From positions 1 through 17,569 of the forward strand of contig CBDAFQ010000013.1 of NCBI GenBank assembly GCA_965195275.1: a stretch of DNA of 17,569 nucleotides. Reading direction: 5' to 3'. The notes beneath the pieces are model-generated. The model saw only the letters and a program-made list of their open reading frames with translations, had not been told where the DNA came from and did no database searches. The DNA comes from an uncultured ANME-1 euryarchaeote (lineage in GTDB: Archaea; Halobacteriota; Syntropharchaeia; Alkanophagales; Methanospirareceae). This document shows positions 1,168-14,128 of this stretch, piece by piece. The translations under genes were made by a program, and so were the position numbers. The stretch's first letter is position 1. Each line of letters opens with the position of its first letter.

Positions 1168-2442
1168 ATGGGGAAGCAATTCTTAGAAATCGTTGAGAAA
1201 GAGAAGGTAGAAGAAATAGTTGCCGAGCTCAGTGCGAAACTTGCAAAGCAGACAGAGAAGGAAAAAGCGGGTATCGACGAAGCGCTCGGTAGAATTGCAG
1301 CTACAGACATCTTTTCAGTTCTCAATATCCCCCCTTTTGACCGAGCAACTATGGACGGCTACGCAGTGGTTGCCGCTGATACATTCTATGCAGACGAAAA
1401 CAATCCCGCCTCGTTGATTATAAGAGGATATGTCCCTGCGGGCGAGTTACCTTCACAAGATGTAGAAAGCGGCTATTGCTTGGGCATATCTACCGGCGCA
1501 CCTATCCCGAAAGGTGCAAATGCTGTTGTCAAAATCGAAAACACATTTCTTGATGATGCCGAAATAAAAAAGGTGAAGATATACAAACCAGTCGCTCCTA
1601 ACGAGAACATCATGCTCGCAGGCACGGATATAAAGCGAGGCGAGCGGATAGTAAAGGGGGGGACCATGCTAACGCCACGTGAGACCGGTGTTCTGGCTGC
1701 ATGTGGGCTAAACGAAGTCTCTGTACGTAAAAGACCGAAAGTTGCAATCATATCCACGGGCAATGAGATACTCGTGCCTGGCGAAGACCTCAAACCGGGA
1801 AAGATATACGATGTTAATGCGCAGGCAATCAGCGATTCAGTTAGAGACTGCGGCTGTGTCCCTTTAGCTCTTGGAATTGCACGCGATAACGTCAACGAGA
1901 TTTCTGGAAGCTTAAAAGAGGCATTAAAAAGGGATGTTGATGTTATAATCGCCTCGGGCGGTACCTCGGCAGGCGTTGGTGACCTATTGCCAAATGTGAT
2001 AGAAGAGCTTGGCGAGATTATCGTGCATGGCGTTGATATAAAACCAGGAAAACCGCTCATCTTCGGCTTGATCAGGGGAAAACCGGTGTTTGGATTGCCT
2101 GGCAATCCTACTTCTGCGTTAATTACCTTTAACCTTTTCGCAGCCCCTCTGCTACGCACAATAGCCGGTATCCGCTCGCTCGAAGAAGGCGAAAGGCGAA
2201 GTGCAAAAGCTGCAATTAGGATCTTCTCCGAGCGAGGGCGAAATGAATACGTACTTGTAAATCTCATGCCCCTAAACGATGAATTACTTGCATATCCTAT
2301 TCTCTCCGGCTCCGGTGCTATTACAACCCTATCAAAAGCGGATGGCTATTTGTACATGGCGAAAGGGAAGGAGATACTGGAAGAAGGGGAAATGGTGGAA
2401 GTTAAATTATTGACGAACCGAAATCAGCTCAAAAATCGGTGA
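1168..2442 (+). CDS. moeA: Molybdopterin molybdenumtransferase MoeA (gephyrin E-domain family)
   Basis: MoeA motifs are present: PPFDRATMDGYAV, GGTSAG, GLPGNPTSALITF. The 424-aa length is typical. Confidence 0.85.
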   Translation: MGKQFLEIVEKEKVEEIVAELSAKLAKQTEKEKAGIDEALGRIAATDIFSVLNIPPFDRATMDGYAVVAADTFYADENNPASLIIRGYVPAGELPSQDVESGYCLGISTGAPIPKGANAVVKIENTFLDDAEIKKVKIYKPVAPNENIMLAGTDIKRGERIVKGGTMLTPRETGVLAACGLNEVSVRKRPKVAIISTGNEILVPGEDLKPGKIYDVNAQAISDSVRDCGCVPLALGIARDNVNEISGSLKEALKRDVDVIIASGGTSAGVGDLLPNVIEELGEIIVHGVDIKPGKPLIFGLIRGKPVFGLPGNPTSALITFNLFAAPLLRTIAGIRSLEEGERRSAKAAIRIFSERGRNEYVLVNLMPLNDELLAYPILSGSGAITTLSKADGYLYMAKGKEILEEGEMVEVKLLTNRNQLKNR

Positions 2443-2488
2443 TTTTTGAGCTGACAATGCAAAATGGAAAGTGCAAAAGTCAAAGTTC
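2425..2488 (+). repeat. Copy 1 of a recurrent gene-3'-end element. A perfect 12-bp-stem hairpin CAGCTCAAAAAT-cggtg-ATTTTTGAGCTG straddles the moeA TGA stop, followed by the conserved tail GACAATGCAAAATGGAAAGTGCAAAAGTCAAAGTTC.
   Basis: The palindrome can be read directly. The tail is nearly identical to the reverse complement of 5346-5384 and similar to 5256-5286 and 10176-10210. Confidence 0.7.
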
Positions 2489-2509
2489 AATAAAAAGCGA
2501 TACACTCAC

Positions 2510-2530
2510 GTAATTATTTATATTCTAAGT
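2510..2530 (+). promoter_or_regulatory. TATA box (ATTTATAT) about 30 nt upstream of the tRNA 5' end
   Basis: This is a classic archaeal TATA. Its spacing fits a TSS just upstream of 2556. Confidence 0.45.
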
Positions 2531-2689: not shown

Positions 2690-3736
2690 ATGACAGAAAT
2701 GAAGGAACTATTGAAGGAATTAGCTGAAGCACATGGCGTTTCCGGTCGCGAAGGCGAGATAAGGGCAATCGTGGAAGCAGAACTAACGCAATATGTGGAC
2801 GAGATAAAGACCGACAGGTTGGGTAATTTGATAGCAACGAAACGGGGTAAAAAACCGTCTGTTATGCTTGCTGCGCATCTCGATGAGATCGGGCTTATGG
2901 TGAAGCATATAGAAGACGATGGATTTATGAGATTCTCAACCATTGGTGGCTGGTTTGATCAGACACTGCTAAATCAAAGGGTGATTTTGCAGGTCGATAG
3001 TGGTGTTGTATATGGCGTTGTCGGTTCAAAACCACCACATAAAATGAAGAAGGAAGAGCGGGATAAGATGATCAAATGCGAAGATATGTTCATTGATGCA
3101 GGAGCTCGTAGCAAAGAGGAAGTAGCGCAAATGGGCATCTCTATTGGAACCCCGGTCACCATAGATAGGCACTTTGTAGAGCTCAAAAACGGTATTGTTA
3201 CCTGTAAAGCATTTGATAATCGAGCAGGTGTCGCGATAATGATAGAAGCACTAAAAAGGGTGAATACTGAATTTGAGGTATATGCAGTGGGAACGGTACA
3301 AGAGGAAGTAGGGCTGAAAGGAGCACGAACCGCAGCTTTTGGGCTCGACCCCGATGTGGCTATCGCAATAGATACCGATATAGCAGGTGGGCACCCGGGA
3401 ATAGAAAAGAAAGACACGACAGTAGAGATAGATAAAGGTCCGGTAATCACCGTTTCTGATGCCTCGGGCCGTGGTATAATAACGCCACTCTCTGTCTTGA
3501 AATGGCTTAAAGAGACTGCGTCCCACCACAAGATAGAATATCAACTCAGTGTATCGGAAGGCGGTATGACAGATGCAGCTATAATTCATCTCACAAGAAG
3601 CGGCATACCCACGGGTATTATCGGTGTGCCTACAAGATACATACATTCGCCTGTGGAGCTGATAGGCATGAAGGACATCGATAAATGCGCTGAGCTCATT
3701 GCACGGGCTGTCGAGCATGTGGGTGATTACTTCTGA
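2690..3736 (+). CDS. M42-family metallopeptidase (TET aminopeptidase / FrvX-like)
   Basis: The 348-aa protein shows M42 signatures: AAHLDEIG, GGW, CKAFDNRAGVA and VQEEVGLKGA at the metal-binding region. Confidence 0.8.
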   Translation: MTEMKELLKELAEAHGVSGREGEIRAIVEAELTQYVDEIKTDRLGNLIATKRGKKPSVMLAAHLDEIGLMVKHIEDDGFMRFSTIGGWFDQTLLNQRVILQVDSGVVYGVVGSKPPHKMKKEERDKMIKCEDMFIDAGARSKEEVAQMGISIGTPVTIDRHFVELKNGIVTCKAFDNRAGVAIMIEALKRVNTEFEVYAVGTVQEEVGLKGARTAAFGLDPDVAIAIDTDIAGGHPGIEKKDTTVEIDKGPVITVSDASGRGIITPLSVLKWLKETASHHKIEYQLSVSEGGMTDAAIIHLTRSGIPTGIIGVPTRYIHSPVELIGMKDIDKCAELIARAVEHVGDYF

Positions 3737-4234: not shown

Positions 4235-4681
4235 ATGGCAAAAATAGAACTCGTTTGCTGGAAGGATAAAATCGGTGGCGAAATAGAGAGACAGGTAACA
4301 GATGCGTTCAGCTATGGCTTTACCATTGGTTCGCATGGCGAATGGGAGATGGCAATAGCGAAGGAGGATAAAGAAGTTTCGAAAAACGAACTCGTGAACA
4401 TAACGATAGAAGATATAGAGTTGCCGCCAAAGGCGATAGTCTTGCCTTGTAACATAATGCGACATGCACTTGGCATTGTTTCTTCGTTCGCGGCTGTGGG
4501 ACAGCCAAAGAGTGTAGAGGAAAAGAGAGTGCTTAATGAAGCTATTTTTCACCCCCTGTTTGATGGTAAGGTAAGTAAAGGCGAATTACTCTCTGTTGTG
4601 AATATATTTTATGCTGCGGTAGAGCGAAGGCTTGCGAGAGGTGCTGCGGAGAAGTGGCTGCGCGAGCGATACAAGTATTAG
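4235..4681 (+). CDS. Hypothetical protein. The track ORF begins at GTG 4211, and the first ATG is at 4235.
   Basis: The 148-156-aa ORF overlaps the downstream kinase gene by 28 nt, which suggests a co-transcribed unit. I recognised no family. Confidence 0.45.
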   Translation: MAKIELVCWKDKIGGEIERQVTDAFSYGFTIGSHGEWEMAIAKEDKEVSKNELVNITIEDIELPPKAIVLPCNIMRHALGIVSSFAAVGQPKSVEEKRVLNEAIFHPLFDGKVSKGELLSVVNIFYAAVERRLARGAAEKWLRERYKY

Positions 4682-5253
4682 CTTTCGTCGGTGCGCCCGC
4701 GGCCGGGAAGACAGAAGCGGCATCGGTAGCTAAGACGCTTGGCATTCCGATCATAACCATGGGTGACGTGATAAGGGCGGAGCTAAGAAGGCGAGGTCTT
4801 CCGTTAAGCGACGAAAATGCGGGCAGAATTGCATCGGAGCTGCGAGCGCGAGAAGGAATGGATGCGATTGCAAAACGGTGCATCCCACATATAAAAGCGA
4901 TAGCTGGTAAAAAAGCGGTTATCGTAATAGATGGTATAAGGGGCATCTCCGAAGTGGAAACGTTTAAAAAAGAATTTGGCACTGATTTTACGCTTGTGAG
5001 AGTGGATGCCCCTCTCAATCTCAGATATGAGCGGATAAAGACCCGTGGCAGAGGTGATGACTCGCTTAGTATCGAGGAATTTAAGGCACGAGAAGAGAGG
5101 GAGAAAGGGTGGGGAATGGGAGAAGCAATGAAAAATGCTGATAATGTTATAACGAACACGGGTTCTCGAGAACACTTTAAAGAACAGATAGAAGAGATTT
5201 TAGCTTCTTCGATACCGGAATATGGTAATTGCTCAAAATCTTGTGGATTTTGA
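4654..5253 (+). CDS. P-loop nucleotide kinase of the archaeal UPF0200 / CoaE-like family. The track start is GTG; an alternative start is the ATG at codon 36.
   Basis: The N-terminal Walker A motif is VLAFVGAPAAGKTEAA. The 199-aa length and overall pattern resemble archaeal UPF0200 proteins. Confidence 0.6.
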   Translation: MAARAIQVLAFVGAPAAGKTEAASVAKTLGIPIITMGDVIRAELRRRGLPLSDENAGRIASELRAREGMDAIAKRCIPHIKAIAGKKAVIVIDGIRGISEVETFKKEFGTDFTLVRVDAPLNLRYERIKTRGRGDDSLSIEEFKAREEREKGWGMGEAMKNADNVITNTGSREHFKEQIEEILASSIPEYGNCSKSCGF

Positions 5254-5286
5254 GCAATTAATTTCAAAATGCAAATTGCAAAATAT
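5231..5286 (+). repeat. Copy 2 of the 3'-end element. The hairpin GCTCAAAAT-cttgtgg-ATTTTGAGC straddles the TGA stop of the UPF0200 gene, followed by AATTAATTTCAAAATGCAAATTGCAAAATAT.
   Basis: It has the same hairpin arms (GCTCAAAA / TTTTGAGC) and the same ATGCAAAAT..TGCAAAA tail as copy 1. Confidence 0.65.
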
Positions 5287-5345
5287 AAAACGGTAAAATG
5301 GGCTCTTTTAACTTTAAAGCAGCCATTAACACCATCTGTTGAACT

Positions 5346-5413
5346 TTGACTTTTGCACTTTGCATTTTAAATTTTGCATTATCAGCTCAAAAAAAACAAA
5401 GGTTTTTTGAGCA
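5346..5413 (-). repeat. Copy 3 of the 3'-end element in minus orientation, downstream of the minus-strand gene 5442-5876. The hairpin is GCTCAAAAAA-aacaaagg-TTTTTTGAGC at 5385-5412.
   Basis: The reverse complement reads GCTCAAAAAACCTTTGTTTTTTTTGAGCTGATAATGCAAAATTTAAAATGCAAAGTGCAAAAGTCAAAGTTC, which matches 2427-2488 nearly position for position. Confidence 0.7.
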
Positions 5414-5441
5414 GATACGGAACATGTATAGAACCACGAGA

Positions 5442-5876
5442 TTATACAACGGCGCTTGCTACATCTCTGCTTTCTGTGGCGGCCAACCTGTATTGTCTCT
5501 TTGCCCTACTTCCTTTTCTCATCAAAATACCAGTAGAATGGAAGTTCCCTAAATATGTAGATATTGTAGTAAGTCCCACTTTCTCATCATACACGTCTTC
5601 ATATATACACCTTACCTCTGAAGAAGTGAACCAATCCTTTGGTGCCTTTTCATCAAAGCGCAAAAAGGATGCCAATCGCTCCTTTATCGTAAGTTCTTCG
5701 CCTTCATAATAATCATCAACTGCCGGCGAAGAAAGGTGCGTCTCCAAAAACTTTGTCACGTCATTTATAGTCATCTGTCGGAGCAGCTGGATTTGTAAAT
5801 CGCCCTCCTTCTCCAGGGTTGTTTTTGTACCTTCTTCATCCGTTACCTCTACCCGCACCTTTAGCATCGCTTTCAC
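5442..5876 (-). CDS. Hypothetical protein with a probable C-terminal winged helix-turn-helix DNA-binding domain; candidate transcription regulator
   Basis: The C-terminal segment SSEVRCIYEDVYDEKVGLTTISTYLGNFHSTGILMRKGSRAKRQYRL has a helix-turn-helix-plus-wing pattern. The gene is divergent from dnaJ. Confidence 0.5.
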   Translation of the reverse strand: MKAMLKVRVEVTDEEGTKTTLEKEGDLQIQLLRQMTINDVTKFLETHLSSPAVDDYYEGEELTIKERLASFLRFDEKAPKDWFTSSEVRCIYEDVYDEKVGLTTISTYLGNFHSTGILMRKGSRAKRQYRLAATESRDVASAVV

Positions 5877-5914
5877 CTGTTCACATATTCAGTGAACAAG
5901 TGAAGGTAAGGAAG

Positions 5915-5930
5915 AGGTTATATATAAAGG
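5915..5930 (-). promoter_or_regulatory. Strong TATA box (TTATATATAAA) preceded by a purine-rich BRE-like stretch, about 40 nt upstream of the minus-strand ATG at 5876
   Basis: It is a canonical archaeal TATA read directly from the sequence. The box is near-palindromic, so its orientation is inferred from the gene spacing. Confidence 0.45.
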
Positions 5931-6099
5931 TATTGCTGTAAATGTACAAAATCTCATTAGCGTCACTTGCTGATTTTTGACGTTTACCCCTTTTTATTTT
6001 ACACCTTACACGTTTAATTCTATGCTCAACCGCAGCCAAACTTTTGAGTTGACACCTCTGTTTCCTGTGGAGTGAGGTAGTGAACAGTGAACCTTGCTA

Positions 6100-6152: not shown

Positions 6153-7349
6153 TTGACAGAGAAGAAAGAGTACTACAAAACCTTAGGTGTAGATCGCGGA
6201 TCATCGCAGGACGAAATAAAGCGTGCTTATCGGAGATTAGCAAAAAAATATCATCCTGACCTCAACAAGGAGAACCACAAGGAATCCGAGGAGAAGTTTA
6301 AAGAGGTATCCGAGGCTTATGAGGTGTTATCGGATTCACAGAAGAGGGCGAATTATGATAGATTTGGGAGTGCAGGCGTTGATTTCGGTCGTGGTGGATT
6401 TGAGTGGTCTAATTTCACACGGTTTAGCGATGTAGAGGATATATTTGGAGGCTTATTCAAGGACCTTTTTGGCGGTAATTTCGGTAGATCTCAAGGCGGC
6501 AGCTCCATGTTCGATGACCTCTTCGGCCGGGGACAGACAGGGGCAGATGCAGGATACCGGCCAGAGAGAGGAAGCGACATCAGGTATGATCTTGAAATAG
6601 ACCTTGAAGATGCTGCGATGGGGATGGAAGAAGAGATAAGCATTGCTAGACGGGATTTCTGTCCCAATTGTAGCGGAACGGGCGCGAGTGCAGGCGGATT
6701 GGAAACCTGTGCTACTTGCGGAGGAACGGGACAGGTAAAAAGAGTGCAAAGGCAGGGCTTTGCACAATTCATTTCTATCGGTTCCTGCCCTCGATGCCGA
6801 GGAACGGGAAAAGAGATAAAAGATCCATGTGAGAATTGTAACGGAAACGGTAAAATCAAAGTGAATAAGAAGATATTAGTGAAGATGCCTGCGGGCGTAG
6901 ATACCGGAAGCAGATTAAGGATTGCAGGAGAAGGGAACGCAGGCGAGAGAGGAGGTCCACCGGGCGATTTGTATGTGATGATACATGTAAGGGAGCATGA
7001 ATTCTTCAAAAGAGGGGGCAACAACCTGTTTTGTGATGCTCCTGTTCACTTCGCGCAGGCGGTGTTTGGCGATGAGATAGAGCTAATGACGATAGAAGGC
7101 GGCACGGTAAGACTAAAAATGCCTGCTGGCACGCAATCGGGCACGGTCTTCCGACTGAAGAACAAAGGAATGCCCGATTTAAGGGGCTATGGGAAAGGTA
7201 ACATGCTAGCGAAAGTGCAGGTTATAACACCGTCAAAACTGAGTAAAAGGCAAAAGGAACTGTTACGTGAATTTGATGAGGGAGAAGAAGCAGGGGATAC
7301 GCAAAAGAAAAGTGCCTTTTGGAAAAACAAAAAAAAACAAAGTAAGTAA
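6153..7349 (+). CDS. dnaJ: Chaperone DnaJ (type I Hsp40) with a probable TTG start
   Basis: The J domain (YYKTLGV ... KKYHPDLN) is followed by a Gly/Phe-rich region and four CxxCxGxG zinc-finger repeats ([32 protein letters not shown]), then the C-terminal substrate-binding domains. Confidence 0.9.
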
Positions 7350-7369: not shown

Positions 7370-9130
7370 GTGAAAGGTATGAAGCAAGAGATACGAACGC
7401 CCATACTCTCGGTACTTGGACATATAGATCATGGTAAGACCTCACTACTTGATTCGATACGGGGCACAGCAATCACAGCAAAGGAAGCAGGTCGTGTGAC
7501 GCAGCATATAGGTGCGACAGAAATCCCTATTGATACAATAAAAAAGATTTGTAAACCACTAAAAAGGGATTGGACAGGAATAGAAATACCTGGTTTGCTT
7601 TTCATTGACACTCCAGGGCATCATGCCTTCGCATCATTGAGGAAACGCGGAAGTGCTTTAGCTGATGTCGCGGTCCTTGTAGTGGATGTGATGGAGGGTT
7701 TTCAACCGCAGACATACGAATCGTTAAACATTTTAAGGCTATTAAAAACGCCTTTTGTTGTTGCATTGAACAAAATAGACCGGGTAAGTGGCTGGAATTC
7801 GACGAATAAACCTTTCATTATCAATTATAAAGATCAGCCGGATTATGCGCGGAATGAACTGGACGCGCGGATATATGATATGGTAGGAGACCTTTACGAT
7901 AAAGGCTTCTCGGCTGACAAGTATGACCAGATAAGAGATTTCGCAAAGACTGTGGGTATTGTGCCGCTGAGTGCACAGACCGGAGAAGGGATTGCTGATT
8001 TACTCCTTGTGCTCATAGGATTATCGCAGAAGTTCTTTGAGATGACTCTGCGTCTACATTTAGAAAAAGCGGGTGTTGGCACGATATTAGAGAAGAAGGA
8101 GGAAAGAGGGCTCGGAACTACGATTGATGTGATATTATATGATGGTAAGATCAGCGTGGGCGATACAATCGTGGGTGGTGGCACTGATGAGGAACCAATA
8201 GTTACAAAGGTGAAGGCATTGCTGAAACCAAGAGCACTGCAAGAGATACGGGTAGAGCAACGGTTTGAGCGGGTAAAAACGGTGAATGCCGCTTCTGGTG
8301 TGAAGATAGTAGCACCGAATATAGAAACTGCGCTCCCGGGTGCACAGGTGAGAGTGGTTGGAGAAGGAGATGTACTTGAGAACGTGGTGAAATTGGTTAA
8401 GAGCGAGATAGAGGAGATGAGGATGGAGACATCACCAGAAGGGCTAATAATAAAGGCAGATACCATGGGCTCACTGGAAGCGCTTGCTTCTGAGCTGCGA
8501 GATGAAGAGATAGAGGAGATAAAAAAGGCAGAGGTTGGGAATATATCTAAAAGGGATGTGATAGATGCGGGTACGGTTAAGAACCGTTATTCCGGTGTTA
8601 TTTTGGGCTTTAATGTTGACCTCCTCCCGGATGCAAAAGAGATGGTTAGGGAGAATGGAATACCAGTATTTATAAGCGATGTCATTTACCGGTTGATAGG
8701 AGAGTATAAGGACTGGATGAAGGGAGAGAAGGAGAAAGAGAAGCGTGAGATTATCGAACGGCTGCCCACACCTGCTAAGATTAAGATCCTGCCTGGGTGT
8801 GTGTTCAGGCAAAGCAAGCCCGCCATCGTAGGTGTGGAAGTTCTTGGTGGGAAGATACAAACAGGTGTGGACCTGATAAAAGCGGATGGTACCAACATAG
8901 GCACGATAAATGAGATACAAGATAAAGCAGAGAGCATAAAAAGTGCGGGACTGGGGATGCAAGTCGCTATTTCAATGAAGAAACCGACTGTGGGGCGGCA
9001 AATAAATGAGAAAGATCTATTATATGTGGATATTAGCAAAGAAGAAGCGAAAGCACTATCTGGTTTGTTGTCCGCTGATGAAGAGGATGTGTTAGAGGAG
9101 TTGATGAAACTAAAAAGCCGGCATTTGTAA
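7370..9130 (+). CDS. infB: Translation initiation factor aIF5B (archaeal IF-2 homolog)
   Basis: The G-domain motifs are GHIDHGKTSLLD (G1), DTPGH (G3) and NKID (G4). The 586-aa length is typical of aIF5B. The gene starts 20 nt after the dnaJ stop and has a GGTGAAAGGT ribosome-binding site. Confidence 0.9.
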   Translation: MKGMKQEIRTPILSVLGHIDHGKTSLLDSIRGTAITAKEAGRVTQHIGATEIPIDTIKKICKPLKRDWTGIEIPGLLFIDTPGHHAFASLRKRGSALADVAVLVVDVMEGFQPQTYESLNILRLLKTPFVVALNKIDRVSGWNSTNKPFIINYKDQPDYARNELDARIYDMVGDLYDKGFSADKYDQIRDFAKTVGIVPLSAQTGEGIADLLLVLIGLSQKFFEMTLRLHLEKAGVGTILEKKEERGLGTTIDVILYDGKISVGDTIVGGGTDEEPIVTKVKALLKPRALQEIRVEQRFERVKTVNAASGVKIVAPNIETALPGAQVRVVGEGDVLENVVKLVKSEIEEMRMETSPEGLIIKADTMGSLEALASELRDEEIEEIKKAEVGNISKRDVIDAGTVKNRYSGVILGFNVDLLPDAKEMVRENGIPVFISDVIYRLIGEYKDWMKGEKEKEKREIIERLPTPAKIKILPGCVFRQSKPAIVGVEVLGGKIQTGVDLIKADGTNIGTINEIQDKAESIKSAGLGMQVAISMKKPTVGRQINEKDLLYVDISKEEAKALSGLLSADEEDVLEELMKLKSRHL

Positions 9131-9282
9131 CCACAAGATTACACAGATTTCCACGAGAGAAATTGTGAAGATGCAAGAAAATAAATTATTGACACAGATT
9201 AACGCAGATTGACACAGAAGAAATCAAATCAGTGTAAATCTACGTCTTAAATATGTAGAAGTTATACTTTAGATACAACAAG
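9128..9282 (+). repeat. Copy A of a roughly 160-bp interspersed intergenic repeat (TAACCACAAGATTAYACA ... ATTATTGACACAGATTAAC ... CAGAAGAAAT.AAATC.GTGTAAATCT ... GAAGTTATACT ... ATACAACRAG). It begins at the infB stop codon.
   Basis: It shows block-wise identity with 13964-14128 in the same orientation. The internal short direct repeats are CACAGATTAAC / GCAGATTGAC / CACAGAAG. Confidence 0.7.
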
Positions 9283-9779: not shown

Positions 9780-10172
9780 ATGCAAGTAGTGATAAGCGAC
9801 CCGAAGACCGGGAAGGCGTACAAGGTGGAAGGTAAGGATACGGAAGCTCATGCTTTATTCATTGGCAAACGAATAGATGACGTTGTGGATGCGGATATTA
9901 TCGGCTTGGGCGGTTATGTATTGGAGATAACCGGCGGCTCGGATAAAGAAGGCATGCCGATGCGGAAAGATGTATCAGGAACCGCGCGAAGGCAGATTCT
10001 TATCACCTCCCCACCGGGCTACAGACCAACGGAGAATGGTAAAAGGAGACGGAAATCGGTCCGAGGTAACGAGATCTCAACTGAGATTTCGCAGATCAAC
10101 GTGAAGATAAAGGAGTATGGCTCGAAGCCGTTAGAGGGGCTATTTGGGGCAAGTGAAGAGAGGGGATCGTGA
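9780..10172 (+). CDS. rps6e: 30S ribosomal protein S6e
   Basis: The protein reads MQVVISDPKTGKAYKVE ... GGYVLEITGGSDKEGMPMRKDVSG ... RRRKSVRGN, which is the S6e signature. The 130-aa length fits. Confidence 0.9.
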   Translation: MQVVISDPKTGKAYKVEGKDTEAHALFIGKRIDDVVDADIIGLGGYVLEITGGSDKEGMPMRKDVSGTARRQILITSPPGYRPTENGKRRRKSVRGNEISTEISQINVKIKEYGSKPLEGLFGASEERGS

Positions 10173-10210
10173 TTGTGGATGCGAAACAAAATGGAAAGTG
10201 CAAAATAAGT
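10170..10210 (+). repeat. Copy 4 (truncated) of the 3'-end element, reading GATTGTGGATGCGAAACAAAATGGAAAGTGCAAAATAAGTAAA. It begins at the rps6e TGA stop.
   Basis: The core CAAAATGGAAAGTGCAAAA is identical to the core in 2461-2479. Confidence 0.6.
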
Positions 10211-10227
10211 AAATATTAAAGATGCTT

Positions 10228-10297
10228 GATACAAGATGCAGGTCAAACGTGTATCATGTATCCGGCATCCGGTATCAGACATCGTTTTCTTGTTTTA
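10228..10297. terminator. Hairpin-like inverted repeat (GATACAAGATGCAGGTCAAACGTGTATC) followed by the T-runs TTTTCTTGTTTT, between convergent genes rps6e (plus) and the HD hydrolase gene (minus)
   Basis: It shares the GATACAAG/TGTATC arms and the CTGCATC motif with 9282-9310. The oligo-T tract is at 10285-10296. Confidence 0.4.
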
Positions 10298-11500
10298 ACG
10301 CCATAAGACCAACTCCGCCGCTTTCTTTACCTCTACCCGATATTTTTCAAGTGTGTAGACCCCCACTTTATAATTTTCCTGGAATGCTTGACTGAGCATA
10401 GACACGAGCGATGAAACTTCCCGTAAGCTTCTTAAGTCATTACCAACCGCGACTTTCGCAGCACTTTCTTTTACGTCTTCGCCTTTTTCTCCTTGAATAT
10501 CCAAAATGACATAGTTCATATCTACACCAGCTCGCTTACTTATCTCTTCTTCTAATTCCTTTCTTCGCTTTTCCGTTCTTAATTCCTCTGCTACACACAG
10601 GTCATTTATGCTTGTATATACCGCACGTTTGAATAATCGTCTCTCGTTTATCCGCACCATCATCTCCCTTGGATAACCTTTTGCATTCCTCAACGCAATA
10701 TCTAGTTCGGAATCATCCATTTGTCGCAATGCCAACGCGTCAGATCGCGATTCTATGCGATACTCAAGTGCTTTCAAGAGCATCAACTGCGCTATCCTAG
10801 CCGTGTGGTGTTTATAAACTGTAGGCGACATTAAGAATCGAGAGAAGAGTAAATATTCCGCTGGTAGTATCCCTTTTTCTGTTATGACAAGGCGGCCATT
10901 GAAGAACTCCAGGCCTTGTATGAGCCTTATATTGTCAACAACGCCGTATGCAACGCCAGTATAGTAGGCATCGCGAACCAAATAATCCATCTTATCCACG
11001 TCTATTTCTCCGTTTAAAAATCTCGAAAAATCGTGGTCGTCGTCATCGTCCCCCCCTACCCCTTTTATATAGCGCATTACCTTTCTCTTATCCACGCAAT
11101 GTTCTTCTAAGACGTCAGCAATAGTTTTAGAGTGTTCTGCGTCTTGTTTAAAGATTATATCCTCAATATCCTCATGACTTTTTCCCGTGATTTTTTTTAG
11201 CAGTGGTTCCGTCACGTGCGAGTAAGGACCATGACCGATGTCATGAATCAAGGAAGCGACAAGAAGCTCTTTCTCTTCCGCTTTTGATACTTCCAGTGTG
11301 TCAAGCAAGACGTTCGTCAAGTGATAAGTTCCAAGAGAATGTTCAAACCTCGTGTGATTTGCTCCCGGATAAACCAAATAAGCGAACCCAAGCTGTTTTA
11401 TTCGTCGCAACCTCTGCATCGCCGCGGTGTCGATTATCGCGATTGCAAGCGCATCTAGTTCTATATACCCGTGTATTGGATCTCTTATTACCGTTTGCAT
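10295..11500 (-). CDS. HD-domain phosphohydrolase (dGTPase / SAMHD1-like dNTP triphosphohydrolase family). The start is placed at the MQTVIRDPIHGY methionine, not at the upstream track ATG.
   Basis: DPIHGYIEL is the characteristic N-terminus. The HD motif is IHDIGHGPYSH. The TATA box TTTATATAGTAATTC (reverse complement of 11534-11548) sits at the right distance upstream of ATG 11500. Confidence 0.8.
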   Translation of the reverse strand: MQTVIRDPIHGYIELDALAIAIIDTAAMQRLRRIKQLGFAYLVYPGANHTRFEHSLGTYHLTNVLLDTLEVSKAEEKELLVASLIHDIGHGPYSHVTEPLLKKITGKSHEDIEDIIFKQDAEHSKTIADVLEEHCVDKRKVMRYIKGVGGDDDDDHDFSRFLNGEIDVDKMDYLVRDAYYTGVAYGVVDNIRLIQGLEFFNGRLVITEKGILPAEYLLFSRFLMSPTVYKHHTARIAQLMLLKALEYRIESRSDALALRQMDDSELDIALRNAKGYPREMMVRINERRLFKRAVYTSINDLCVAEELRTEKRRKELEEEISKRAGVDMNYVILDIQGEKGEDVKESAAKVAVGNDLRSLREVSSLVSMLSQAFQENYKVGVYTLEKYRVEVKKAAELVLWR

Positions 11501-11600
11501 CAAATTAAAAGAGAAAGGTTTGTTAAAGAAAAGAATTACTATATAAATTTGAGAGGGCAACTAAAAAAATATTTTCCCCCCTCCCACTCTCTCTTTTGCT

Positions 11601-13073
11601 TTACGCTATTTTTCGTCTCCGTACTGAATATGCAACTGCGAACAGAGACGCAATAGCGAAACCAACTTCAAAACCGGGTGGTGTCGGCGTTGGAGTCTCA
11701 GCAACAGTCGACTCTGGAGTTTCTACCACAGTTGGCGTTGGAGTCTCAGCAACAGTCGGCGTTGGGGTTTCAACAACCGTAGGCGTTGGTGTTTCTGCCA
11801 CTGTTGGCTTTGGCGATGGTGTCGACGGTACGATTGGACCCTTCAGCTCGAGTGGGTTCCCATATACAACACGTCCATTGTCGGTAATAGTCCATTCACA
11901 GAAACACCCCATCACATCACCGTGCTCATCAAACGTGATTTCGCCAGAAGCACCCAGATAGTTTATGGAATAAAAACCTTTTCGGATAGTATCTAATGCT
12001 TCACCGATGTCAGAAACGTCTTTATTTCCTGGCGGATTTGCAACATCTCGTAAACTGTCACGGATAGCCGTTCCGGAAGTGTCACCCGCTTTTTCTATCG
12101 CAAGTGCTACCACAGCCACTGCATCATAGCTGTTAGCGCAGTAGGCTTCAGGCTCCTTCCCGTACTCGGCCAGATATTTCTGCCGGAATGTTTCGTATGC
12201 GGGACCTCGCGAGTCAGGCGTTGTCCCTTTTAATCCCGCTATAATATAGTTACCCGCCTCGTCCTTGCCCACCATATCTGCCAAATTGTCACTCTTGAGC
12301 CCCTCAGAAAGTAGCCAAGCTATATTATCCATATAGCCGTTCTTGTATGCCGCTTTCAGCATACCACTGCCGGTCTCCGGATATGCACACAGCATAACGC
12401 AATCAGGATTCACGGCTGCTACTTGCTCTACTTCCGAATTGAATGTGGTTGTGTCAGGGTCGTATTTCACGGATTCCAATACCCTTCCGCCGAGCGTTTT
12501 GAATTCCTTCGTGAATGCCTTCTCGAATCCTACTCCGTATGGGTTCCAAACTACCAGCGTGCTCGCTGTCTTATAGCCCTGTTGGATAGCAAGCCTTCCC
12601 ATCGCTATTCCTTGCAATGCGTCAGAAGGGCATGTTCTAAAAAAGAGATCGTTGTCCGGATAGGTTGTAAATTCCACGCCTGTAACAGAAGGTGAAATCT
12701 GAAGAACGCCGTTACTCGTGGTATAACCAATGATTGCCTTGCAGGTTTCGCTGCCCGCTGTTCCGATTATTACCGAGACAGGGTACCAATCAAGGAGTTC
12801 ATGTGCCTTCACAACGGCTTCATCTTCTGACGTTTCGGTATCCTTGATTATAAGCTTAAGTCTTCCGCCGAGTACACCGCCGTTTTCGTTTACCTCTTTC
12901 ACTGCCAGATTCATCGCATCTGTCTCAGGTTTTCCGTACGCGCCTAAGTCCCCGGAAAATGGATAAAGAACTCCTATAGTCACATCTTCAGCACCCACCG
13001 TGCCCACGGATAGAACGGCTGCCAGAACAAAAGTTGCAATAACTAAACCCTCTGTTAAACCTTTTGTATTCAT
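11601..13073 (-). CDS. ABC-transporter-type solute-binding protein (periplasmic binding protein type 1, Liv-like) with an N-terminal signal peptide, a Thr/Pro-rich linker and a C-terminal PGF-CTERM archaeosortase sorting signal
   Basis: The N-terminus MNTKGLTEGLVIATFVLAAVLSVG is a signal peptide. The body resembles branched-chain amino-acid binding proteins. The C-terminus carries repeats of PTVAETPTPTVVETPT followed by PPGFEVGFAIASLFAVAYSVRRRKIA, that is PGF, a TM helix and a basic tail. An AAGGAGG ribosome-binding site lies just upstream of the ATG on the minus strand. Confidence 0.8.
   Translation of the reverse strand: MNTKGLTEGLVIATFVLAAVLSVGTVGAEDVTIGVLYPFSGDLGAYGKPETDAMNLAVKEVNENGGVLGGRLKLIIKDTETSEDEAVVKAHELLDWYPVSVIIGTAGSETCKAIIGYTTSNGVLQISPSVTGVEFTTYPDNDLFFRTCPSDALQGIAMGRLAIQQGYKTASTLVVWNPYGVGFEKAFTKEFKTLGGRVLESVKYDPDTTTFNSEVEQVAAVNPDCVMLCAYPETGSGMLKAAYKNGYMDNIAWLLSEGLKSDNLADMVGKDEAGNYIIAGLKGTTPDSRGPAYETFRQKYLAEYGKEPEAYCANSYDAVAVVALAIEKAGDTSGTAIRDSLRDVANPPGNKDVSDIGEALDTIRKGFYSINYLGASGEITFDEHGDVMGCFCEWTITDNGRVVYGNPLELKGPIVPSTPSPKPTVAETPTPTVVETPTPTVAETPTPTVVETPESTVAETPTPTPPGFEVGFAIASLFAVAYSVRRRKIA
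11686..11832. repeat. Tandem 24-nt direct repeats (about 6 units of GTTGGAGTCTCAGCAACAGTCGGC-like sequence) encoding the TPTPTV(A/V)E linker of the binding protein
   Basis: The periodicity can be read directly. It gives rise to the spurious antisense ORF 11596-11961. Confidence 0.7.
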
Positions 13074-13899: not shown

Positions 13900-13963
13900 C
13901 TGATTATCTATATATACACCTTCATAGATTTAAATCAGTGAATTATAGTTGATTCCGAAGTTA

Positions 13964-14128
13964 TAACCACAAGATTATACACATTTTTTACAAGAAAGCA
14001 TAATATCCAACTAAAATTGATTATTGACACAGATTAACACTGATTAACGCAGAAGAAATTAAATCCGTGTAAATCCGTGTAAATCTGCATCTTGAATGGA
14101 TGGAAGTTATACTGGTATATACAACGAG
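13964..14128 (+). repeat. Copy B of the roughly 160-bp interspersed repeat, with an internal tandem duplication AATCCGTGTA x2
   Basis: It aligns block-wise with 9128-9282 in the same orientation. It lies in a 400-bp intergenic region between two minus-strand genes. Confidence 0.7.

Follow-up and report, generated by a model that had tools for sequence, protein, structure and literature searches.

A hairpin-plus-tail motif recurs in an ANME-1 contig

The stretch of DNA analyzed here (contig CBDAFQ010000013.1, 17,569 nucleotides; referred to as the window) carries genes for S6e, aIF5B, a DUF22 protein, and phosphopantothenate synthetase, an archaeal set, and is 95 to 96% identical across ~7.5 kb to ANME-1/Methanophagales contigs, e.g., the single-cell genome AG-394-G06. 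ANME-1 archaea have not been cultured, and almost all that is known of them comes from metagenome-assembled genomes (MAGs). An earlier reading of the window from its letters alone (the sequence-only reading) had described a hairpin followed by an A-rich tail at the 3′ ends of several genes, the first of them moeA. Here, we describe this motif, which is very probably the end of a family of transposable elements of the miniature inverted-repeat type (MITEs) of ANME-1 (Methanophagales) archaea. Contigs used for comparison are labeled with L-numbers (L007, L066, L099, and so on), and the ANME-1-type contig set amounts to ~300 kb. Gene context was taken from our own open reading frame (ORF) calls scored by codon usage, which recovered the genes that are obvious in the window.

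The hairpin pattern GCTCAAAA-N3-14-TTTTGAGC occurred three times in the 17.6 kb (2427-2451, 5231-5255, and 5385-5412) against 0.01 occurrences expected from shuffled sequences, and an A-rich (NTGCAAA)n tail followed each of these hairpins. The 21-mer AAAGTGCAAAAGTCAAAGTTC was present exactly at 2468-2488 (+) and 5341-5361 (-), with 0 occurrences expected. A profile search with the full element resulted in four copies or remnants in the window. The recurrence of the two-part motif described by the sequence-only reading was confirmed at 5231-5286 and 5346-5413, where hairpin and tail stand together; at 10170-10210, only a tail is present, with no hairpin. A tRNA scan of the whole window found none, and an Rfam search of the same sequence at E ≤ 1 gave no relevant match in the element regions. 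The sole match at that threshold was a subthreshold RsaOG hit (5870-6009, E = 0.76) that overlaps a decayed MITE copy. Exact-protein look-ups of MoeA and of the phosphopantothenate synthetase protein returned no record.

A complete 194-bp element is inserted between two convergent genes

The two units at 5231-5286 and 5346-5413, which the sequence-only reading had counted as separate copies, are the two ends of a single element of 194 bp (5225-5418; strand -, in the consensus orientation with the A end first; nhmmer E = 1e-59). It sits between the convergent genes at 4654-5253 (+) and 5442-5876 (-). Its B end comprises a terminal hairpin, TAATTGCTCAAAATCT-tgt-GGATTTTGAGCAATTA (5226-5260, +), and a tail at 5261-5290. 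The A end, on the minus strand, comprises a tail at 5341-5379 and the terminal hairpin TATCTGCTCAAAAAA...TTTTTTGAGCTGATA (5380-5417), which lies 24 nt after the stop of the gene at 5442-5876. Folded as a single strand, the element forms two terminal hairpins and a tail-to-tail stem (-58.7 kcal/mol; z = -5.9).

L066, L085, and L094, contigs 95 to 96% identical to the window elsewhere, have no such element at the orthologous site; the blastn alignment broke at window 5212/5435 and at L066 4064/4095. The filled site reads CCGGAATATG-[G TAATTGCTC ... GAGCAGATA C]-GGAACATGTATAG and the empty site reads TTGGAATAT(A/G)CATAG. A single GGAATAT(A/G) is found in the empty sites, and the comparison of filled and empty sites identified an unstranded target-site duplication around the insertion, with a left copy GGAATATG at 5217-5224 and a right copy GGAACATG at 5419-5426 (7 of 8 positions matching, at shift 0 only). 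The left copy falls within the last codons of the gene at 4654-5253, which encodes an AAA-type kinase-like protein. The insertion removed the native end of this protein (...LEYT* in L094), and the gene now takes its final 10 codons and its TGA stop (5251-5253) from the B-end hairpin, giving ...EYGNCSKSCGF*.

At the position orthologous to window 5430, where L094 and L066 are empty, L085 (~3245-3290) retains a 30-nt remnant that includes ATTGAGCAGATA from the arm of the A end. This remnant suggests that the spot was hit by a separate insertion and then by a deletion, or that an excision left a footprint there.

Anatomy, target-site duplications, and distribution of the MITE family

Complete copies of the family are 129 to 215 bp long (consensus, ~205 bp), AT-rich, and repetitive, and they contain no ORF. 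Each unit begins with G and finishes with C and is bounded by two imperfect terminal inverted repeats (TIRs) of ~70 nt each. The outermost part of each TIR is a palindrome with a 14- to 16-bp stem, built from two inverted copies of the terminal 14-mer; it is followed by two to seven tandem heptamers in the order NTGCAAA (ATGCAAA and so on) and then AAAGTGC-AAAAGTC-AAAGTTC. In L088/L157, the array is expanded to (ATGTAAA)5. The A-end palindrome is GTATCTGCTCAAAAA-N8-TTTTTGAGCAGATA, and that of the B end is GTAATTGCTCAAAAT-N-ATTTTGAGCAATTA; after the T-rich heptamers, the element finishes with ...TTTTGAGCAATTAC. The A end begins with GTATCTGCTCA and the B end with GTAATTGCTCA, with the common form GTA(T/A)(C/T)TGCTCAAAA (in brief, GTAWYTGCTCAAAA). 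Within the centre (~60 nt) lies a small inverted repeat of its own. End-to-end alignment of 10 copies from different loci and samples showed that the A and B ends are distinct from each other and conserved. Covariation of the stem across copies, proposed as a check by the sequence-only reading, was present: over 24 distinct termini, the 14 pairs were paired in 92% of cases, 7 pairs were changed on both sides, and the covariation score was reached by 0 of 500 shuffles.

To detect duplications, the 8 nt preceding the terminal G and the 8 nt following the terminal C of every complete copy were compared with each other. An 8-bp duplication flush with the G...C termini was observed in seven independent insertions, with 8 of 8 positions identical for L018 (the same as L134), L055 (the same as L147), L144, and L099, and 7 of 8 for the window insertion, L112, and L138. 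Other shifts gave 0 to 5 of 8. The duplicated 8-mers have no common motif. Filled and empty alleles at orthologous sites were obtained for three insertions, namely, the window element at 5225-5418, the moeA copy described below, and the L099 copy, for which the window itself represents the empty site, with a single TGTATAGG near position 150.

The profile search returned at least 40 matches at E < 1e-10 in the ANME-1-type contigs. When species-representative genomes were scanned for the 18-mer AAAGTGCAAAAGTCAAAG, the full hairpin plus tail was recovered from at least seven Methanophagales/ANME-1 assemblies, with the exact 18-mer at no fewer than four to eight loci per MAG in several MAGs; a metagenome scan added ~24 further copies. 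A scan of viral contigs for the A-end hairpin gave 0 matches, and no match to the full element turned up in a blastn search of annotated plasmids and phages. The ANME-1 MITE was also present on L101 (JAYEFY01), a contig labeled Patescibacteria, and the flanking gene there is the one found on the Methanophagales contigs L143, L146, and L149; mis-binning of an ANME-1 contig is the probable explanation of the label. A full-text literature search retrieved no paper joining "ANME-1" and "miniature inverted-repeat." In the literature searched, no description of a MITE family for ANME-1 was found, and the kind of element is itself ordinary selfish DNA.

Several variants of the palindromes were noted among individual copies. 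In pairs of orthologous or nearly identical copies (L007 6188-6221 versus L110 7509-7542; L014 versus L138), the loop of the hairpin occurs in opposite orientations (CCTATGGA versus TCCATAGG), a flip-flop of the kind that recombination between the palindrome arms, or template switching between them, is expected to cause. L144 (~390-400) and L099 (~5262-5272) have lost the B-end hairpin by a precise deletion between the two GCAATTA copies, and ...TTGCAATTAC joins the target duplication directly; palindrome loss recurs the same way at these two loci. The copy at L056 4290-4445/L158 158-291 has an A side that lacks a hairpin and directly adjoins the 3′ terminus of a tRNA-like sequence (...GGTCGCGGGTCCGAACCCCGCCCCCGGCA), and its B end shows the covarying stem variant AAATAGCCCAAAAT/ATTTTGGGCTATTT.

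A one-ended copy has replaced the C terminus of MoeA

The moeA ORF (1168-2442) encodes the MoeA_N, MoCF_biosynth, and MoeA_C domains, and its 3′ end holds a one-ended (A-end) copy of the MITE at 2421-2504 (+). The full-element profile aligned window 2423-2499 to model positions 11 to 95 only (E = 7e-16). This is the first copy of the sequence-only reading, which had located it correctly: the 12-nt arms (CAGCTCAAAAAT/ATTTTTGAGCTG) are part of a longer stem of 14 bp (2424-2454) with the loop GGT, the moeA TGA (2440-2442) lies inside the hairpin, and the heptamer tail (2457-2490) ends at ~2490. A short piece of the element centre then follows to ~2504. The predicted RNA fold of this copy has a free energy of -21.7 kcal/mol (z = -4.1).

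The copy is absent from L159 to L161, which encode an 89% identical MoeA, with a blastn break at window 2409/2505 and L159 4242/4261. MoeA of these contigs ends ...KLISSSFPLR*, and its native TAA corresponds to window 2511-2513. The copy cut off the native C terminus of MoeA, and the last residues and the stop codon are now derived from the element. It was kept in eight of eight close relatives sampled. In several of these orthologous copies, the hairpin decays without compensation, TTTTT having become TTCTT, TCTTT, TTATT, or TTAAT. Judged from its alignment to the profile, the moeA copy is best read as an A half truncated inside the element centre, i.e., a one-ended deletion derivative. At another locus, the orthologous copies in L146, L153, and L120 keep differing amounts of the inner part, which fits deletion derivatives and not a separately mobile half-unit.

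In other ANME-1 lineages (L162 4310-4350; MoeA P0018 and its relatives P0031, P0044, P0048, and P0054), MoeA ends ...LLTNLFASKKLYQKIP, and the ORF runs into a different palindrome, CTTTTTGC-AA-GCAAAAAG. The 3′ end of moeA seems to have been remodeled more than once.

Termini and duplication length point to an IS66-type transposase

The MITE would be moved in trans by a DDE-type transposase that makes a cut and staggered join and duplicates 8 bp of target, and the heptamers may serve as additional binding sites for this transposase. The 8-bp duplication and the termini beginning with GTA point to the IS66 family of insertion sequences (ISs), which has 8-bp direct repeats and inverted repeats beginning with GTAAGCG (PMC11946415). 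ISDge4 of Deinococcus geothermalis, a member of the ISBst12 group, is bounded by the TIRs GTAACTGCTCAGCA/GTGACTACTCAGCA and has a direct repeat of 8 bp (PMC12898284). An IS66-like element on Geobacillus kaustophilus pHTA426, whose transposase matches PF03050, has the ends GTATCTATTCAGCCC/GTAACTATTCAGCCC (beginning with GTAACTATTCAG/GTATCTATTCAG). The MITE has the 8-bp target-site duplication in common with this family and group. Its termini (GTATCTGCTCAAAA/GTAATTGCTCAAAA) share the form GTA(A/T)CT(G/A)(C/T)TCA and agree with ISDge4 at 11 to 12 of the 14 terminal bases and with the pHTA426 element at 9 to 10 of the first 12. Unlike the IS66-type ends that we examined, the MITE has palindromic termini made of inverted 14-mers plus heptamer arrays, and it contains no transposase. 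From the termini and the duplication length, the IS66 family and, within it, the ISBst12 group constitute a well-supported lead to the transposase that would mobilize the MITE.

Contig L152 contains two MITE ends and, at 11500-12180, an internally deleted IS66-type element with the right end GTAACTACTCACCCC. It was detected by tblastn with the pHTA426 PF03050 transposase (46 to 50% identity) and was the only match to this query in the contig set. The 120 best protein relatives of this remnant are nearly all fragments of 95 to 290 amino acids, and among these relatives there was no intact IS66 transposase gene tied to an ANME-1 genome. Searching the ~300 kb of contigs for IS66 transposase signature motifs found none. 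IS66/ISBst12-type elements with the ends GTAAC(C/T)ACTCACCC are present on L152 and, as relatives of its remnant, on L164 (3401-4673) and L165 (3389 onward), where the ends read GTAAC(C/T)ACTCAC or GTAAC(C/T)ACTCACCCG.

Position relative to genes and alternative explanations

Approximately 20 independent hairpin-bearing termini are located between -43 and +49 nt relative to the stop codon of a gene on the same strand, and in 7 of them the ORF ends inside the element; a single hairpin-bearing terminus, that of L099, faces a start. Ends that face a start are mostly without a hairpin (L007/L110, L144, and the B end of L099). In tandem-gene contexts, the end on the stop side keeps its hairpin and the end toward the start of the next gene is decayed or deleted. 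The whole start-facing half is missing from the moeA copy, L119, two copies in L121, L145, and L157. As read from the consensus, each frame of a MITE terminus reaches a stop within 9 to 29 codons; therefore, ORFs run a few codons into the element, and the hairpins appear to straddle stop codons. Copies persist mainly in very short spacers at 3′ ends, often inside the last codons, where they may be tolerated since the terminus provides a stop.

According to the sequence-only reading, every copy lay 3′ of a gene and in its sense orientation. The former does not apply to the decayed copy at 5947-6056 (-), which lies between divergent genes, or to the L099 copy, 17 nt upstream of a gene start. The orientation bias is for the most part an artifact: a symmetric element with a hairpin at either extremity presents first the hairpin and then the tail to any gene that flanks a complete copy; what is left of the bias is the retention of hairpins on the stop-codon side in tandem-gene contexts. 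This retention may be due to tolerance at 3′ ends, to counterselection of a T-run palindrome in front of genes, or to selection for terminators. That reading also listed, among its options, a small insertion element that prefers gene ends as targets; the insertion element is borne out by the polymorphism, duplications, and TIRs. That targets are strictly preferred is doubtful, given the lack of a motif common to the duplicated 8-mers and the location of some insertions in 5′ regions.

One rival explanation is a host-selected 3′-end module, i.e., a terminator or a 3′ untranslated region (UTR) element for stability or protein binding that is kept because it works there, whatever its mobile origin. 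The skew of hairpin-bearing termini toward stops, the loss of the hairpin or of the whole half on start-facing sides, the covarying stem, and the retention of the moeA copy in all close relatives sampled would fit such a module. Archaeal RNA polymerase terminates at oligo(T); runs of T5 to T9 lie inside the 3′ arm of the hairpin, and the opposite tail gives runs of T3 to T4. With hairpin ends persisting beside stops, a secondary terminator-like role is possible. However, the copies are insertions with target duplications and not conserved orthologous signals, they also occur in divergent promoter regions, and the orthologous moeA hairpins decay uncompensated. A bacterial-type hairpin followed by a T run was not detected: a scan for bacterial-type terminators and promoters flagged no MITE copy, and its counts were no higher than in shuffled sequences. 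Covariation would be expected equally if a transposase binds the palindromic site. We consider a host-selected module unlikely, and a 3′-UTR stability or termination element as the primary nature of the motif, the first suggestion of the sequence-only reading, gives way to insertion polymorphism, 8-bp duplications, and TIRs. Another idea, in our estimate improbable, is that MITE ends have been co-opted as gene-end modules, with hairpins selected (as the covarying stem would indicate) only beside stops and lost when facing starts, to give a compact bidirectional 3′-end or insulator signal. The T-run palindrome and the A-rich/T-rich heptamer arms would then be the acting parts, and the heptamers of Fibrobacteria (see below) would belong to a binding or termination module shared across domains by horizontal transfer or convergence.

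Short extragenic palindromes at gene 3′ ends, sometimes in inverted pairs and with covarying stems, also resemble repetitive extragenic palindromic (REP) sequences and their REPIN doublets, so that a REP/REPIN-like or IS200/IS605-derived palindrome-associated transposable element (PATE), moved as single-stranded DNA by an HUH tyrosine transposase (RAYT/TnpA), comes to mind. Such transposition proceeds without target duplication and does not need TIRs, whereas here seven insertions have 8-bp duplications flush with inverted termini. REPs would have a conserved GTAG-type 5′ tetranucleotide, which is lacking, and PATEs would have subterminal hairpins without TIRs, whereas the present hairpins are terminal. 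No Y1 transposase was seen beside any copy in a search that was not exhaustive and that did not cover RAYT genes genome-wide. This origin is highly improbable. The chance that the motif is an AT-rich low-complexity repeat or a heptamer microsatellite that arose independently in intergenic DNA, the alternative against which the sequence-only reading had set its proposal, is close to nil: the variable number of heptamers (two to seven units, with the (ATGTAAA)5 expansion) and the occurrence of identical heptamers in unrelated bacteria would suit it, but the copies share ~200 nt of ordered, nonrepetitive sequence with sharp boundaries, distinct A and B ends, and target duplications, and the number of motif occurrences expected by chance is ~0. 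Two further candidates were rejected, namely, a replication-strand (KOPS/Chi-like) motif, given opposite orientations 100 nt apart, and integron attC sites, given flanking housekeeping genes and an element with TIRs and target-site duplications.

Insertion polymorphism, target-site duplications, terminal repeats, covarying stems, and remodeled C termini were all observed, and we regard a MITE family as very probable. Several observations weigh against this reading. The complete L124 copy is without a duplication (2 of 8), and the moeA copy has a single recognizable end and no clear duplication. The imbalance of ~20 loci beside stops to 1 beside a start may mean that passive tolerance is not the full explanation of the skew. 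With respect to the transposase, neither an autonomous element with the termini, hairpins, or heptamers of the MITE nor a left-end/right-end pair 0.5 to 5 kb apart was found in the ~300 kb of contigs. The IS66-type elements observed match the MITE at only ~9 of the first 11 terminal bases and are without its palindrome and heptamers, and we know of no description of palindromic termini with heptamer arrays for IS66-family ends.

Remnants and adjoining repeats in the window

An old, decayed copy of the A half with a degenerate hairpin and tail (5947-6056, -; nhmmer E = 0.0017) lies in the divergent intergenic region between the gene at 5442-5876 (-) and dnaJ at 6153 (+) and is conserved in L066, L085, and L094. 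The tail-only remnant after the S6e stop (10170-10172) extends over 10179-10205 (+); at 10187-10205, it matches copy 1 (2460-2478) exactly over 19 nt (19/19), and its whole-element profile score is E = 0.81. The 3′ flanks of related strains retrieved by the S6e look-up diverge within this remnant, and a clean empty site was not found among these strains.

Next to the remnant, at 10209-10262, comes a repeat module unrelated to it, and the same ~60-nt module is present within a complete MITE on L141 and L142. An inverted repeat, 9282-9321/10209-10262, encloses the S6e gene together with two small PaREP1-like ORFs. A second family of dispersed intergenic repeats, ~110 to 150 nt in length and with the core ATTGACACAGATTAACRCAGATTAACGCAGAAGAAATTAAATCCGTGTAAATC(CGTGTAAATC)TGCGTC, is represented at window 9125-9268 and 13961-14113 (+; ~85% alike) and on L121, L062, L153, L157, and L135; it often adjoins or interrupts MITE copies. 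Elsewhere in the window, five tandem 24-nt repeats (11683-11837) encode a Pro/Thr-rich linker (ETPTPTVV/AETPTPTV...) that precedes the PGF-CTERM-like tail of a 490-amino-acid periplasmic-binding-type protein on the minus strand.

Significance and comparison with known systems

The MITE is neither a new regulatory RNA nor a new class of element. A high-copy-number element of ~200 bp explains odd, lineage-specific C-terminal extensions of housekeeping proteins (MoeA, the AAA-type kinase, and others) as well as intergenic differences between strains, and probably also some contig breaks and cases of mis-binning. The family provides strain-level insertion markers and evidence of recent, probably IS66-type, transposition in the ANME-1 lineage. 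Its filled and empty alleles constitute a natural experiment on whether insertions change transcription termination in archaea.

MITEs of other archaea, including SM1 to SM4 of Sulfolobus, have been reviewed (PMC10969869) and surveyed (PMC11602168). They resemble the present family as nonautonomous IS derivatives in intergenic DNA and differ from it in their IS families and hosts.

REP and REPIN elements with their RAYT likewise comprise extragenic palindromes at 3′ ends, inverted doublets, and maintained stems. They lack target duplications and DDE-type termini, in contrast to the MITE with its 8-bp duplication.

The 18-mer is also abundant in Fibrobacteria MAGs, where it belongs to a different kind of element. 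In these GC-rich bacterial genomes (DATENA01, JBDSWM01, and JBDSIO01; L009 to L118), we counted 37 paired elements of 86 to 186 bp (e.g., L031 3080-3215) of the form GAGAG-(AAAGTGC/AAAAGTC/AAAGTTC)n-variable centre-(T-rich heptamers)-CTCTC, with a centre of 30 to 90 nt. They fill intergenic spacers, often from a few nucleotides past the stop. A quick inspection revealed no evident 8-bp duplications around them. The three heptamers of the ANME-1 tail recur here in inverted arrays, but the terminal hairpin is missing and the outer ends are GAGAG-like; the likeness of the heptamers may reflect either homology or convergence. Similar heptamer tracts were noted in contigs of Terriglobia, Bacteroidales, and WOR-3.

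The Correia elements of Neisseria duplicate TA, have 26-bp inverted repeats, and exert transcript-level effects that were demonstrated experimentally. They share with the ANME-1 MITE a small, noncoding, TIR-bounded, and multicopy nature and a position in or next to gene ends. Stable transcript hairpins (predicted for the MITE) and altered C termini are likewise common to both; signals for termination or processing can come from Correia elements and may come from the MITE. The two differ in the domain of the host, in the transposase family, and in the duplication, which is TA for Correia elements and 8 bp for the ANME-1 MITE.

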